NCBI GenBank assembly: GCA_937898545.1
Contig: CALEJV010000003.1
Span: 253,193-317,192 of the forward strand
Direction: 5' to 3'
DNA from: an uncultured Candidatus Saccharibacteria bacterium
GTDB lineage: Bacteria; Patescibacteriota; Saccharimonadia; Saccharimonadales; Saccharimonadaceae
Length of the DNA: 64,000 bases
Each line of letters begins with the position of its first letter. Positions within the stretch are counted from its first letter, which is position 1. Positions 1-5,359 of this stretch are shown in pieces. Under the pieces are notes generated by a model. That model did not search any database. It saw only the letters and a program-made list of their open reading frames with translations, and was not told the DNA's origin. The translations under genes were made by a program, and so were the position numbers.

Positions 1-1485
1 AGCAATGACGATCGTTGTATCAACCAAAAAGTCCGGGTTAGCCGTGGCCAAACCGTTGCGAAGGGCGACACGCTCATCGAGGGCGCGTCCATTGCCGATG
101 GTGAGCTCGCCCTCGGTAAGGACTTGCTGGTAGCCTTTATGCCGTGGGGCGGCTACAACATGGACGACGCAGTAATTTTGAGCCGCCGCTTGGTAGAGGA
201 TGATACCCTTACCAGCATTAATATCAAGGACTACACCGTCGAGGTGCGTGAGACAAAACTTGGCCCAGAGATCGTGACGCGCGATATTCCCAATGTGAGT
301 GAGGATAGCCTTCGCCACTTGGATGAGAGCGGTATTGTGCAGATTGGCTCTGAGGTCAAGGCGGGCGATGTTTTGGTCGGCAAGATTACACCAAAGGGTG
401 AGCAAGAGCTCAGCAGTGAGGAGCGCTTGCTGCGTGCAATCTTTGGTGAAAAGGCCAAGGATGTGCGCGACACCAGCCAGCGCATGAACAATGCTGGTGG
501 CGGTAAAGTTGTTGGCGTCAAGGTATTTAGCCGCGAGAATGGCCACGAGCTCAAGACGGGCGTATTGATGCAGATTCAGATCTTTGTCGCGCAATTGCGC
601 AAGATTGGTGTTGGTGACAAGATGGCTGGCCGCCACGGTAACAAGGGTGTGTGTGCCCGCGTTATGGCGGTAGAGGATATGCCATACCTAGCTGATGGTA
701 CTCCTGTTGATGTCATCCTTAACCCGCTTGGTGTGCCAAGCCGTATGAACCTTGGCCAGCTCTTTGAGACGCACCTCGGCATGGCTGCACGAGCACTCGG
801 CTACAAGGTTGCCACGCCGCCGTTCAACGGTGTGCCAGCCGATACCATCAAGGATGAGCTTGAAAAGGCTGGCATTGCGCGCGACGGCAAGAGCCAACTC
901 TACGATGGCCTGAGCGGTGAGCCATTCGAGGAGCGTACAACAGTCGGCGTGATGCATATGATCAAACTCCACCACATGGTGAGCGACAAGATCCACGCCC
1001 GCAGCACTGGCCCGTACACTATGGTGACTCAGCAGCCACTCGGTGGTAAGGCTCAAAATGGTGGCCAGCGCCTCGGAGAGATGGAGGTTTGGGCACTCGA
1101 AGCTTACGGTGCTGCGACCACTCTACAGGAGATGCTGACAATTAAATCAGACGACGTGTATGGCCGAGCCAAAGCCTACGAGGCAATCATCAAGGACGAG
1201 CCAATTGCCGGGCCAAAGCTACCTGAGAGCTTTAACGTGCTTGTCAAGGAGCTGCAAGGTTTGGGTCTGCGTGTTGACCTGCTGGATGAGTCTGACGAGT
1301 CGGTTGATGCCGAGCATGTCATTGCTGCTGCAGGCCCTGCTGACAAAACCGTCCCATCTGACGAGAGCGATGACGAAGCAACCTATCTTGATGAATCCGA
1401 CGGCATTGGCACGATCGCTGATGACAGCGGCATGTCCGTCCAAGATATTGACACAGTAGAAAACCTAAGCGAGGAGGAAGCCTAA
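1..1485 (+). CDS. rpoB: RNA polymerase beta subunit, 3' part (gene begins before the window)
   Basis: Frame open from base 1 ([10 protein letters not shown]...[16 protein letters not shown]). Contains [24 protein letters not shown] and [12 protein letters not shown]. Ends in an acidic tail of about 65 aa. Confidence 0.99.
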
Positions 1486-1486
1486 G

Positions 1487-4400
1487 ATGTCCCACGTGGT
1501 AACAGATCACGATATCGCCAATTTTGATGCGGTACGCTTGGCCGTCGCCAGCCCCGAGGATATCCTCAAGTGGAGCTACGGCGAAGTCACCAAGCCGGAG
1601 ACGATTAACTATCGAACCCAGAAGCCTGAGCGCGATGGCCTGTTTTGTGAGCGAATTTTTGGCCCAGTCAAAGATATCAACCCACACGACAGCAAGCTCA
1701 AGGGTGTGCGCAGCCGCGAAGCTGCAGTAGACAAGAATGGCGAGCTTGTCACCAAGTCGATCGTGCGCCGCGAGCGGATGGGGCACATTAGCTTGGCCAC
1801 CCCTGTTGCGCATATTTGGTTTATGCGCGGCACGCCCAGTGCAATGAGCCTCTTGCTAGGTATTACGGTGCGCAATCTCGAGAAGATCGCCTACTTTGCT
1901 ACCTATGTCATCCTCGACGTCGACGCTGAAACACGCGACGCTTATTTGACTGACCTTGAGGCTGAGACTGAGGCGGCACGGGCTGCCATCAAGATTCGCT
2001 TTCAGCGTGAAGCTGAAGCTGATGGGGCAGACGTGAAGGCTCTTGCTGAGCAGCAAACACGCGAGTACGAAGAGCTTGAGGCAACCTACAGCCAAAAGAA
2101 AGCCCAGCTCGAGAGTCTGCAAAAGTGCGCCCTCCTAAGCGATACCGACTATCGCAACTTACCCGAAGAGTATGAAGAGCTCGTGAAGGTTGGTATGGGT
2201 GGTGATGCCCTCAAGGCGCTCCTTGATGATATCGACCTCGACGCGCTTATCGCCGATCTGCAAGAAGAAGCCGAAGGCGCGCGTGGTCAACGCGAGAAGA
2301 AGCTCCTTAAGCGCCTTAAGGTGCTGGAGGGTATGCAAGCGGCAGGTATTAAACCATCGAGCCTGTGTATGACGGTTTTGCCAGTCATTCCACCAGATTT
2401 GCGGCCAATGGTAGCCTTGAGTGGTGGACGCTTTGCGACGAGTGATCTCAACGACCTCTACCGCCGCGTCATCAACCGTAATAACCGTCTCAAGAAGCTC
2501 ATCGAGCTCAACGCACCAGAGGTAATTCAACGCAACGAGAAGCGTATGCTGCAAGAAGCGGTCGATAGCCTGATTGATAACTCGGCTGCTCGTGGTGGCC
2601 GTGCTGTCAACGCAACTGGTGGCCGCCGCCGCCTTAAGAGCATTAGCGATATGCTTAAGGGTAAGCAAGGGCGCTTCCGCCAGAACTTGCTGGGTAAGCG
2701 CGTCGACTACTCGGGCCGTTCGGTCATCGTGGTGGGCCCGAAGCTCAAGATTCACCAGTGTGGTTTGCCAAAGCAGATGGCAATTGAGCTCTTCAAACCA
2801 TTTGTCATCAGCTGGCTTATCAAGGGCGATTACGCTCACAACATCCGTAGTGCAACGCGCCTAATTGAGGCAGGTGAAGCGGTTGTGTGGGATGCATTGG
2901 ATGAGGTAATCAAGGGCAAGTATGTCCTGCTTAACCGTGCGCCATCACTACACCGCTTGAGTATCCAAGCCTTCCAGCCAAAGCTGGTTGAGGGTAAGGC
3001 GATCCAGCTTCACCCGCTCGTCGCTAACGGCTTTAATGCCGACTACGATGGCGACCAGATGGCTGTCCACTTGCCGCTCAGCGCCGAAGCACAGGCCGAA
3101 GCACGCGAGCTGATGAGTGCCGTCAATAACCTGCTTAAGCCTGCCGACGGGAGTCCTGTCCTCAGTATCGACCAGGACGTGGTGCTCGGTAACTACTACC
3201 TCACATATGAGAAGCCTTCGGCTCAGACTGATACTGTCGCTGTCTTTGCCGACAGCCGGGCTGCTGAGCTAGCCTACGACATGGGCAAGCTCCACCTGCA
3301 GAGCCCGATTCGCATCCGGGCTAAGGGTGAAATCCGGACGACTACCTTGGGGCGTGTCTTCTTTAACGAGATCCTGCCAGAGGACTTCCCTTACAACAAC
3401 AACGTCCAGACCAAGAAAGAGCTTAAGCGGGTACTTGGTCAGATCTTCGAGCGTTATGGCGCTGCTGAGACTGCTATCACTGCTGACCGCATGAAGGGCT
3501 TGGCCTTCCGCTTTGCCACCACTGCTGCGGTGTCGACTGGTATGGAAGACTATCTCAGCTTCGACGAAATTGCTGACTTCGTGGCTGAGGGTGACGCACG
3601 CTCTGCTGCGATCTCGGAGCAGCTCGACCAAGGGCTCATTACCGAGGATGAGCGCTACACATTGACCGTCAACAACTGGCGCACCGTCGACCGCAAGGTA
3701 GAGGATTTCCTGCGCAGCCAGTTGGCCCACATGGACACCTCTGTCGCAACGATGGTGAACTCTGGTGCTCGTGGTAGCGTCAACAATATTAAGCTAGCGA
3801 GTGCGATGATCGGTATCCAGGTGGATGCTGCCAACCGCGAGATTGAGCTGCCAGTGCGTAGCAACTTCAAGCGAGGGTTGTCGAGCCTGGAAGCTTTCGT
3901 GGCAACGCGTGGTGCTCGCAAGGGGCTTATCGATACCGCCCTCAAGACGGCCGACTCTGGCTATCTCACGCGTCGCTTGGTCGATGTCTCGCAGGATGTC
4001 TTTACTGTTGAGGATGAAGAGGGCGATGACGATGGCTTCACTATCTATCGCAATGAGTCTGAGGAGACGATGATCGAGTTTGGCAACCGCTTGTTTGGCC
4101 GCTACACCGCCGAGGCAGTGCCAGGCCACCTCGACCGCGACCAGCTCATTACACGTGAGATTGCCAACGCTATCGAGGCAGATCAGTCGATCGACCAAGT
4201 ACGTATCCAGTCTGTCCTCTCTACTAAGAACTTGCACGGTATTCCACGTAAGAGTTACGGGATCGATATGGCAACTGGCCAACTCGTCGATGGTTCGCAG
4301 CCAGTTGGGGTTATTGCCGCGCAGTCGGTCGGTGAGCCAGGTACACAGCTGACGCTTAATACCTTCCACAGCTCTGGTGTTGGTGGGTCAGACATCACCC

Positions 4401-5359
4401 AGGGTCTGCCGCGTGTCGAGGAGCTCTTTGAGGCACGTAACCCGAAAGGTCAGGCCTACGTCACAGAAGTCGCTGGTTTGGTCGATATCTGGGAAGATGG
4501 CAAGAAGTACGTTGTACAGGTCACGCCACAAGCAGGTAAGGTAGAGCGTATGCCGCTCGATGGCCGCATGGTGATGGTACAATCGGGCAGCAAGGTCAAG
4601 GTTGGCGACGTCATCGCGTCATTCGACGATGGCACACAGCCACTCACTGCACCGTTTGATGGAGTGGTTGAGTCCACCGGTGATTCGCTTGTCCTCACAG
4701 GCAACGCGACAGCACCAGTCCGCTACGAAATCCCTGGCACGATGTATCTTGTCGTTAAGCCAGGCGATATGGTCGAGCCAGGCGATCGCCTGACACTTGG
4801 TTCGCTCAACCTGCACGACCTCATGCGCCTCAAGGGCACAGAGGCAACCCAGCGCTACATCATCAACGAAGTACTTCGTATCTATGCTGCGCAGGGCCAG
4901 GATGTGGCTGGCAAGCACCTTGAGATCATCGTCCGGCAGATGTTTAGCCGGGTGCAGATTGATGATCCAGGCGACAGCACCTTCGTCATGGGCGACATCA
5001 TCTCCAAGGCATCAGTGGTTGATGCCAACAAGGAGCTTGTTGCCCAGGGCAAAACACCAGCCCAGTATGCACAGCTGCTGCTTGGTATCACCAAGGTGAG
5101 TATCTGGAGTGATAGCTGGCTGTCTGCTGCGTCGTTCCAAGACACAACTCGCGTGCTGATCAACGCTGCCACCAGTGGCCGCGCCGACCACCTCAAGGGT
5201 CTTAAGGAGAACGTCATCATCGGCAACAAAGTGCCGGTTGGTACGGGTGCGCATCCACTGCCGCTTGAGAAAAATGACTCTCCGGAGGATGAGTTTGTCG
5301 CCGAAGCCCAGGCCGAAGAGGCTGAGCCAGAAGTGACAATTGCTACTGATGAGCTGTAG
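1487..5359 (+). CDS. rpoC: RNA polymerase beta' subunit
   Basis: GKQGRFRQNLLGKRVDYSGRSVI, catalytic NADYDGDQM, bridge helix GARKGLIDTALKTADSGYLTRRL, trigger loop GEPGTQLT, SAASFQDT. Confidence 0.99.
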   Translation: MSHVVTDHDIANFDAVRLAVASPEDILKWSYGEVTKPETINYRTQKPERDGLFCERIFGPVKDINPHDSKLKGVRSREAAVDKNGELVTKSIVRRERMGHISLATPVAHIWFMRGTPSAMSLLLGITVRNLEKIAYFATYVILDVDAETRDAYLTDLEAETEAARAAIKIRFQREAEADGADVKALAEQQTREYEELEATYSQKKAQLESLQKCALLSDTDYRNLPEEYEELVKVGMGGDALKALLDDIDLDALIADLQEEAEGARGQREKKLLKRLKVLEGMQAAGIKPSSLCMTVLPVIPPDLRPMVALSGGRFATSDLNDLYRRVINRNNRLKKLIELNAPEVIQRNEKRMLQEAVDSLIDNSAARGGRAVNATGGRRRLKSISDMLKGKQGRFRQNLLGKRVDYSGRSVIVVGPKLKIHQCGLPKQMAIELFKPFVISWLIKGDYAHNIRSATRLIEAGEAVVWDALDEVIKGKYVLLNRAPSLHRLSIQAFQPKLVEGKAIQLHPLVANGFNADYDGDQMAVHLPLSAEAQAEARELMSAVNNLLKPADGSPVLSIDQDVVLGNYYLTYEKPSAQTDTVAVFADSRAAELAYDMGKLHLQSPIRIRAKGEIRTTTLGRVFFNEILPEDFPYNNNVQTKKELKRVLGQIFERYGAAETAITADRMKGLAFRFATTAAVSTGMEDYLSFDEIADFVAEGDARSAAISEQLDQGLITEDERYTLTVNNWRTVDRKVEDFLRSQLAHMDTSVATMVNSGARGSVNNIKLASAMIGIQVDAANREIELPVRSNFKRGLSSLEAFVATRGARKGLIDTALKTADSGYLTRRLVDVSQDVFTVEDEEGDDDGFTIYRNESEETMIEFGNRLFGRYTAEAVPGHLDRDQLITREIANAIEADQSIDQVRIQSVLSTKNLHGIPRKSYGIDMATGQLVDGSQPVGVIAAQSVGEPGTQLTLNTFHSSGVGGSDITQGLPRVEELFEARNPKGQAYVTEVAGLVDIWEDGKKYVVQVTPQAGKVERMPLDGRMVMVQSGSKVKVGDVIASFDDGTQPLTAPFDGVVESTGDSLVLTGNATAPVRYEIPGTMYLVVKPGDMVEPGDRLTLGSLNLHDLMRLKGTEATQRYIINEVLRIYAAQGQDVAGKHLEIIVRQMFSRVQIDDPGDSTFVMGDIISKASVVDANKELVAQGKTPAQYAQLLLGITKVSIWSDSWLSAASFQDTTRVLINAATSGRADHLKGLKENVIIGNKVPVGTGAHPLPLEKNDSPEDEFVAEAQAEEAEPEVTIATDEL

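Follow-up and report, generated by a model that had tools for sequence, protein, structure and literature searches.

In the stretch of DNA analysed here (the window, 64,000 nucleotides from an uncultured Candidatus Saccharibacteria (TM7) bacterium), the rpoC gene encodes an RNA polymerase β′ subunit whose trigger loop, which serves every cellular RNA polymerase as its mobile catalytic element, carries Leu and Asn at the two positions that in E. coli are held by Met932 and Arg933. Across the order Saccharimonadales Leu at position 932 (E. coli numbering) is the general trait, and position 933 is a site of four states, namely Arg, Lys, Asn and Asp; within the family of the window Asn is outnumbered by Arg alone. 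In our reading the Leu-Asn form is a variant that is tolerated and has a mild tuning effect, the site having ceased to require Arg in this lineage; we put the probability of this reading at roughly 0.65. The genes and elements concerned are the following.

1487 to 5359, + strand: rpoC, RNA polymerase β′ subunit of 1290 amino acids (P0001), matching TIGR02386; the sole copy in the genome
1 to 1485, + strand: 3′ part of rpoB (the C-terminal 494 amino acids of β), ending 1 nt before the start of rpoC
4331 to 4381, + strand: GEPGTQLTLNTFHSSGV, the N-terminal arm of the trigger loop (trigger helix 1); PDB β′ chains have 'gepgtqltmrtfh' in alignment with it
4346 to 4348, + strand: Gln954, equivalent to E. 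coli Q929 and to yeast Q1078, which partners N1082 in Pol II; invariant
4355 to 4357, + strand: Leu957 (CTT), equivalent to E. coli β′ M932 and yeast Rpb1 L1081; no changes on the family tree
4358 to 4360, + strand: Asn958 (AAT), equivalent to E. coli R933, Taq R1239 and yeast Rpb1 N1082; variable (R/K/N/D) in relatives
4367 to 4369, + strand: His961 (CAC), equivalent to E. coli H936 and yeast H1085; invariant, no changes
3011 to 3055, + strand: catalytic loop FNADYDGDQMAVHLP, which keeps the Asp triad and the counterpart of N458 (Asn) and has Tyr for Phe461

The initial annotation of this DNA had placed an LNTFH trigger loop within rpoC, and the exact translation, the alignment over the full length of β′ and the single copy of the gene all bear it out. 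Positions 4331-4381 on the + strand translate exactly as GEPGTQLTLNTFHSSGV, in frame within the open reading frame 1487-5359, the product of which scores 1399.4 bits on the NCBIfam model TIGR02386 rpoC (cut-off 963.5) and aligns at E = 0 with more than 60 solved bacterial β′ chains, 'gepgtqltlntfh' of the window standing directly over 'gepgtqltmrtfh' of these chains. When the trio of residues contacting the nucleoside triphosphate (NTP), Met932/Arg933/His936, was examined, the window read Leu/Asn/His, only the His being kept; as judged by these alignments, the loss of Met and Arg is a variation that leaves membership of the β′ family unaffected. The source assembly (1.05 Mb in 8 contigs, 95% complete) holds one rpoC only. 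Over residues 860-1010 of β′, more than 120 clusters of proteins from independent contigs match the product of the window at 100% identity, and β′ is at least 99.2% identical in about 28 species-representative genomes, all with Asn933; likewise a genome labelled Ca. Saccharimonas aalborgensis, with a β′ 84.7% identical, also reads TQLTLNTFH. This identity across independent contigs and genomes excludes an error of sequencing or assembly, and the Leu-Asn trigger loop is therefore a real observation; nor is chance at issue, because the motif stands where homology places it, in a housekeeping gene of full length.

Searches by sequence pattern, with the matching codons shown, gave the distribution of the motif among relatives. 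Within the genus of the window seven genomes carry Leu-Asn, five Leu-Arg and one Leu-Lys, and the codons at 933 are CGT for Arg, AAG for Lys and either AAT or AAC for Asn. The β′ of the window and that of the Arg clade of this genus share only about 80-85% identity. A sample of 141 genomes spread across the families of the order gave QLTLRTFH in 44, QLTLKTFH in 28, QLTLNTFH and QLTLDTFH in three each and QMTLRTFH in one. There was no pattern match in 59 genomes of this sample; the gene was located in 30 of them by protein search and read in 29, which yielded TQLSLDSKH in about 17, TQLTLRSYH in four, TQLTLDVFH and TQLTLDTKH in three each, and TQLTLNVFH, TQLTLKNFH and TQLTMRTKH once each, the last being the one appearance of the canonical Met-Arg pair in the order sample, among the non-matching sequences inspected. 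In the family of the window, sampled at about one genome per genus (101 genomes, 89 read), position 932 is Leu in all 89, whereas position 933 is Arg in 42, Asn in 22, Asp in 16 and Lys in nine. The uniqueness implied by the initial annotation was thus overstated: Leu932 is order-wide, around a quarter of the genera sampled in the family are Leu-Asn, and Asn933 is met in other lineages as well.

Outside the order, matches listed from a sample of the phylum Patescibacteria are mostly Met-Arg, with some Leu-Arg. Another natural replacement of the 'catalytic' Arg was noticed in about 20 genomes of a different Patescibacteria family (f33; e.g. G037, G065, G090), which read TQMTMQTFH, with Gln at the place of Arg933 and, as in archaea and eukaryotes, Met after Gln929. 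Within Saccharimonadales, loops of the form TQLSLDSKH(R/T) or TQLTLDTKH were seen in many families (L132, L135-L148, L150; also L133, L149, L151); here Asp stands in for Arg933 and Lys for Phe935, and 937 is often Arg. Judged by these residues, a positive charge seems to have been relocated, and the loop is a more radical departure than the Leu-Asn form. Lys935 accompanies Asp933 in seven cases, Asn933 in one and Arg or Lys at 933 in none of 54, a pattern that suggests charge compensation in the Asp forms, with the qualification that the test is underpowered.

How often, and in which direction, the site has changed was read from a maximum-likelihood tree of 89 full-length β′ sequences comprising the unbiased family sample, genus representatives and four outgroups; a separate tree, built from sequences of the Asn-motif scan and hence biased to Asn, was not used for direction. 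The 933 column requires 24 changes of state on the tree where the possible minimum is three, and at least nine changes involve Asn when well-supported branches only are counted. The group of the window consists of six sequences with 99% support (three Asn, two Arg, one Lys) and lies within a clade of 40 sequences with 96% support (29 Arg, eight Lys, three Asn). Because this group is nested in a largely Arg clade, the Asn of the window is derived from Arg within its own genus. A single-base path leads from AGR (Arg) through AAR (Lys) and AAY (Asn) to GAY (Asp), and this path, together with the codons CGT, AAG and AAT/AAC in the genus, makes it likely that the passage from Arg to Asn went by way of Lys. 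The same nesting, among Arg, Lys and Asp sequences of Saccharimonadales, upholds the view of the initial annotation that the likeness of this bacterial β′ to Pol II and archaea is convergent.

The freedom of position 933 is not shared by its surroundings. By per-column parsimony counts on the same tree, the 19 columns upstream (P939-L957) show 11 changes in total and the last nine of them (GEPGTQLTL) none at all, whereas the 24 changes at 933 place that column at the 81st percentile of per-site change in the whole protein; following it, Thr934 changes twice, Phe935 five times, His936 never and the 937 column 25 times. The residues at 933 in the family sample are limited to Arg, Lys, Asn and Asp, although Ser, Thr, His, Tyr, Glu and Gln are all one base away from codons in use at this position, and the site is therefore filtered rather than free. 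The release is specific to 933 and does not reflect a general decay. A coupling of Asn933 to the catalytic loop was suspected because the Arg clade of the window's genus has the usual NADFDGD at the point where the window reads NADYDGD (with the three Mg-binding Asp residues and the Asn present). This candidate was rejected: the Tyr occurs with Arg in 34 sequences, with Lys in eight, with Asn in ten and with Asp in seven, and characterises a large clade within the family, in which it goes with all four states and bears no relation to 933. The Arg clade of the genus has reverted to Phe.

To place these figures in a wider frame, exact-pattern scans were made over 185,579 species, one genome each. 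The pattern Q-x-T-L-N-T-F-H finds many archaea (Woesearchaeota, Nanoarchaeota, Thermococcus) with TQMTLNTFH. TQLTLNTFH gave at least 118 matches, and those listed are mostly Saccharibacteria, along with five Rickettsiales genomes, several Peribacteria, one Berkelbacteria, one Mycoplasmatales, two genomes labelled Cytophagales, and SR1/Absconditabacterales with the in-frame TGA expected for their code. The scan for TQLTMNTFH, which is complete, returned 119 matches, about 90 of them haloarchaea and about 27 bacteria belonging to Rickettsiales, Midichloriaceae, Deianiraeaceae, Bradymonadales, Chlamydiia, Fimbriimonadia, Clostridia, Peribacteria, SR1 and Paceibacterota. The haloarchaea (L270-L349; about 90 species of Natrinema, Natronococcus, Halolamina and others) combine a bacterial-type 'QL' with Met932 and Asn, and the archaeal motif is therefore not uniform either. 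The sequence context of the bacterial Asn933 matches is that of genuine β′ genes, with two exceptions, L046 and L220, contigs binned into metagenome-assembled genomes (MAGs) of Phycisphaerales and Legionellales, respectively, where the trigger loops TQMTLNTFHLAGVAAKSNMTRGVPRL and TTQLTLNTFHNAGVASRANVTTGLPRI look eukaryotic or giant-virus-like; these are probably binning contaminants. On such matches bacterial Asn933 is rare but recurrent, amounting to a few hundred of the 185,579 species at most; it is found in at least eight bacterial lineages besides Saccharibacteria and is concentrated in those with small genomes or a host-dependent or predatory life. The initial annotation had asked whether LNTFH might be common across diverse phyla: diverse its carriers are, but it is rare overall.

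What the two substitutions could mean for catalysis may be approached through published enzymology. Contacts of the E. coli trigger helix with the NTP are made by the side chains of M932, R933 and H936 (PMC4227799), and in Thermus R1239 and H1242 contact the triphosphate, Ala substitutions costing 50-100 fold (PMC2874521). In E. coli the effects of R933A and H936A are just 4- and 6-fold, such that the loss of the same Arg costs 4-fold in the one enzyme and 50-fold in the other (PMC3325174). Yeast N1082 is the homologue of bacterial R933/R1239 (PMC3325174, PMC2874521) and, with Q1078, contacts the 3′-OH of the substrate (PMC2874521). With this equation of R933 and N1082 (PMC3325174), and with Asn common in archaea, the claim that both NTP-proximal residues are of the Pol II type, Leu and Asn, is upheld. 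The individual substitutions have been made in other bacterial enzymes: Taq M1238L "was as fast as WT RNAP" (the wild-type RNA polymerase) and retained the wild-type dissociation constant for non-cognate NTP, and Taq R1239N "only slightly affected catalysis" (PMC2874521). Both results weaken the proposal in the initial annotation of an altered elongation rate. An effect on proofreading, which it had also proposed, is plausible, since in E. coli R933N "inhibits RNA cleavage" and R933A, by contrast, has a stimulating effect (bioRxiv 10.1101/2024.06.20.599782). A third proposal, altered dependence on Gre factors, finds no sign in gene content. Of 21 genomes searched, 20 encode a GreA scoring above the cut-off, namely that of the window and 19 of its 20 relatives, all trigger-loop states alike, and both loss of Gre and altered Gre dependence were rejected as candidates on this ground.

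Our favoured reading, that of a tolerated and mildly tuning variant, joins these lines as follows. The gene encodes the functional housekeeping β′ of a Saccharimonas-like genus, and its trigger loop is in one of four states that occur in nature. In Saccharimonadales Leu has permanently taken the place of the Met that stacks on the incoming base, and the Arg that in model bacteria helps to position the NTP triphosphate would no longer be needed there, so that 933 could drift or be tuned among Arg, Lys, Asn and Asp while its surroundings, including Gln929 and His936, stay invariant. Given that the Met-to-Leu and Arg-to-Asn mutants are near neutral, evolution could walk among these states. By analogy with Pol II, the Asn form would most likely contact the substrate through hydrogen bonds of the Asn to the Gln and to the ribose 3′-OH, with the phosphates most likely held by His936 and basic residues of the β subunit. 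The residues of the Pol II contact network, in which Gln1078, Asn1082 and the ribose 3′-OH are linked together with Asn479 and Arg446, all have counterparts at homologous positions of the window, namely Q954, N958, the Asn of NADYDGD and the Arg of VDYSGRSV. The phenotype expected from the mutants of other bacterial enzymes, from which the contact geometry and the kinetic consequences alike are extrapolated, would be near-normal nucleotide addition and a somewhat lower intrinsic cleavage, with GreA supplying cleavage; as GreA is encoded, factor-assisted cleavage is available. What was observed directly is the sequence state, where it occurs, that it arose repeatedly and that GreA is retained.

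Several points weigh against this reading. Trigger-loop epistasis is widespread (PMC10002619), and because effects in the loop depend on the context of the enzyme, the Taq and E. coli mutants may not predict the behaviour of the Saccharibacteria enzyme; moreover, we found no report in the literature of the double Leu and Asn change in a bacterial enzyme. Seven phylogenetically independent pairs gave no compensatory residue in β′, the one subunit compared, that consistently tracks Asn as against Arg or Lys, the best partner candidate being Ser at 937 with 4.4 of seven independent contrasts (sign test not significant). Finally, an Asp beside the triphosphate can hardly be described as neutral, a hint that the local mechanism has changed beyond what 'tolerated substitution' conveys. 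A bolder proposal, which we regard as doubtful, is that Saccharimonadales have rewired the holding of the NTP in the closed loop such that Arg became dispensable, with 933 under recurrent and possibly diversifying selection among Arg, Lys, Asn and Asp, with the Asp933/Lys935 loops (TQLTLDTKH, TQLSLDSKHR) as an unrecognised architecture, its positive charge shifted along the helix, and with the Asn forms as natural bacterial equivalents of the Pol II active site. If true, this would make the order a natural allelic series for asking what the Arg of the trigger loop does.

Other explanations start from the evolutionary forces acting on the site. Relaxed selection in an epibiont of small population and reduced genome, with a degenerating polymerase and a slightly deleterious Asn fixed by drift, is in our view unlikely, although the gene bears some marks that would fit it. 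Of the cysteines that form the two zinc sites in E. coli (C70/C72/C85/C88 and C814/C888/C895/C898), none of those checked has a counterpart in the β′ of the window: the first site (window 1643-1760) has no Cys and reads VKDINPHDSKLKGVRSREAAVDKNGELV, and at the second (window ~3970-4270), where 'EDEEGDDDG' and 'STKNLHGIPRKSYG' stand, Cys is absent as far as checked. Loss of the four cysteines of the first, N-terminal site is common to every Saccharimonadales β′ read and is therefore an order-wide trait. NADYDGD in place of NADFDGD, genomes of 0.6-1.1 Mb and the reduced genomes of the other symbionts with Asn933 point the same way. Yet decay would hardly leave the nine residues before 933 and His936 unchanged across 89 genera, nor confine 933 to a filtered set of four residues, and the near wild-type behaviour of Taq R1239N means that the allele need not be deleterious at all. 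Diversifying selection, under which a basic residue at 933 is a liability, for example towards a tagetitoxin-like inhibitor that traps the folded loop or some other factor aimed at the loop of these obligate epibionts, and Asn and Asp are resistance alleles, seems to us quite unlikely. It would account for 24 changes over 89 genera at one site of an otherwise frozen motif and for the recurrence of Asn933 in host-dependent or predatory Rickettsiales, Chlamydiia, Bradymonadales and the Candidate Phyla Radiation (CPR). The position of 933 is Lys in Pol III and Asn in Pol II, which is insensitive to tagetitoxin (TGT). R1239 is a determinant of the action of TGT, which inhibits eukaryotic Pol III (PMC3814378). 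Against such selection stand the lack of any known inhibitor, producer or exposure for these organisms, the equal part in the switching taken by Lys, which would probably retain sensitivity, and the stability of states across groups of species, all of the approximately 28 near-identical species representatives being Asn. Resistance to streptolydigin was rejected as a driver, as M932, R933 and H936 take no part in the binding of this drug (PMC3957892).

It could also be asked whether the gene or its loop came from elsewhere, whether by horizontal acquisition from an archaeon, a eukaryote or a virus, as a chimera, or through a contaminated contig. Pol II and many archaea do have the very same string LNTFH, and the polymerases in L046 and L220 look like eukaryotic or viral types binned into bacterial MAGs. 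In the window, however, the loop is otherwise bacterial (TQL..., SSGVGGSDITQGLPRVEELFEAR), the product of rpoC reaches only 111 bits on the archaeal A″ model TIGR02389 (cut-off 420.65) and 272 bits on the A′ model TIGR02390 (cut-off 1042.55), rpoC starts 1 nt after rpoB, the tree nests the gene among Arg and Lys sisters of the same genus, and one or two point mutations suffice for the change. The model scores, the bacterial context of the loop and the position in the tree exclude transfer or contamination, the probability of which we consider negligible.

Some further features of the two genes lie apart from the trigger-loop question. Two stretches of about 60 amino acids in rpoC are without counterpart in 7l7b_D, the best-matching solved β′. 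The one, near the N-terminus (window ~1922-2120, residues ~146-210), is highly charged and rich in Ala and Glu, and this segment of about 65 amino acids (residues 146-210), when searched alone, matched no solved structure; the other follows the trigger loop (window ~4545-4725, residues ~1020-1080). In rpoB, the C-terminal motif (window 1180-1260) shows two changes at Phe positions that are normally fixed, its E. coli counterpart being AQFGGQRFGEME.

The natural occurrence of the two substitutions in bacteria and the existence of a four-state site within one order appear to be undescribed, whereas each substitution singly is known from mutagenesis. Among full-text, open-access papers and preprints we found none that treats the trigger loop together with Saccharibacteria, and the one found for the trigger loop and the CPR concerns insertion domains. 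Large alignments of trigger loops have been published, one of them with 1403 bacterial sequences (PMC10002619), but we saw no discussion of this natural variation. The Leu-Asn finding by itself is modest, being real but not unique and likely of small biochemical effect. The wider pattern is the more surprising, above all the loops with Asp933 and Lys935. It qualifies the textbook invariance of M932 and R933 in bacteria and lends support to the published near-silence of the Arg-to-Asn change for catalysis. Whether the Arg and His of the loop act as positional or as chemical catalysts has been argued for more than ten years from laboratory mutants of two or three model enzymes. One bacterial order has in effect run the experiment naturally, with at least two dozen switches at 933 in one family and the rest of the motif frozen, and enzymes with Arg, Lys and Asn from the same genus offer natural pairs for comparisons of rate, fidelity, cleavage and response to inhibitors. 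Genetics by natural transformation has been reported for one cultured Saccharibacterium grown on its actinobacterial host.

Compared with known systems, the subunit is first of all a bacterial β′. It shares with the canonical enzymes (E. coli M932/R933/H936; Thermus M1238/R1239/H1242) the gene, the order of domains and the position in the rpoB-rpoC operon, as well as the Asp triad, the bridge helix and the equivalents of Gln929 and His936, and like the β′ of Firmicutes and Thermus it has no SI3 insertion in the loop; it differs from them in Leu for Met, Asn for Arg, Tyr461 and the absence of the zinc cysteines checked. With yeast Rpb1 (Q1078, L1081, N1082, H1085) and the archaeal A″ motif TQMTLNTFH it has Leu-Asn-Thr-Phe-His and the conserved Gln partner in common, but the window reads TQL rather than TQM and SSGVGG rather than FAGVAS, such that the likeness comes down to two residues and is convergent. 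Taq M1238L and R1239N and E. coli R933N reproduce the same single substitutions at the same positions of bacterial enzymes, whereas these laboratory mutants are single changes in unrelated backgrounds and the window presents both changes together, natural and kept across many species. The other loops of Saccharimonadales (TQLTL[R/K/D]TFH, TQLTLDTKH, TQLSLDSKH, TQLTLRSYH) share Leu932, Gln929 and His936 with that of the window and depart from it at 933, sometimes also at 934 or 935, the Asp forms usually carrying Lys935.

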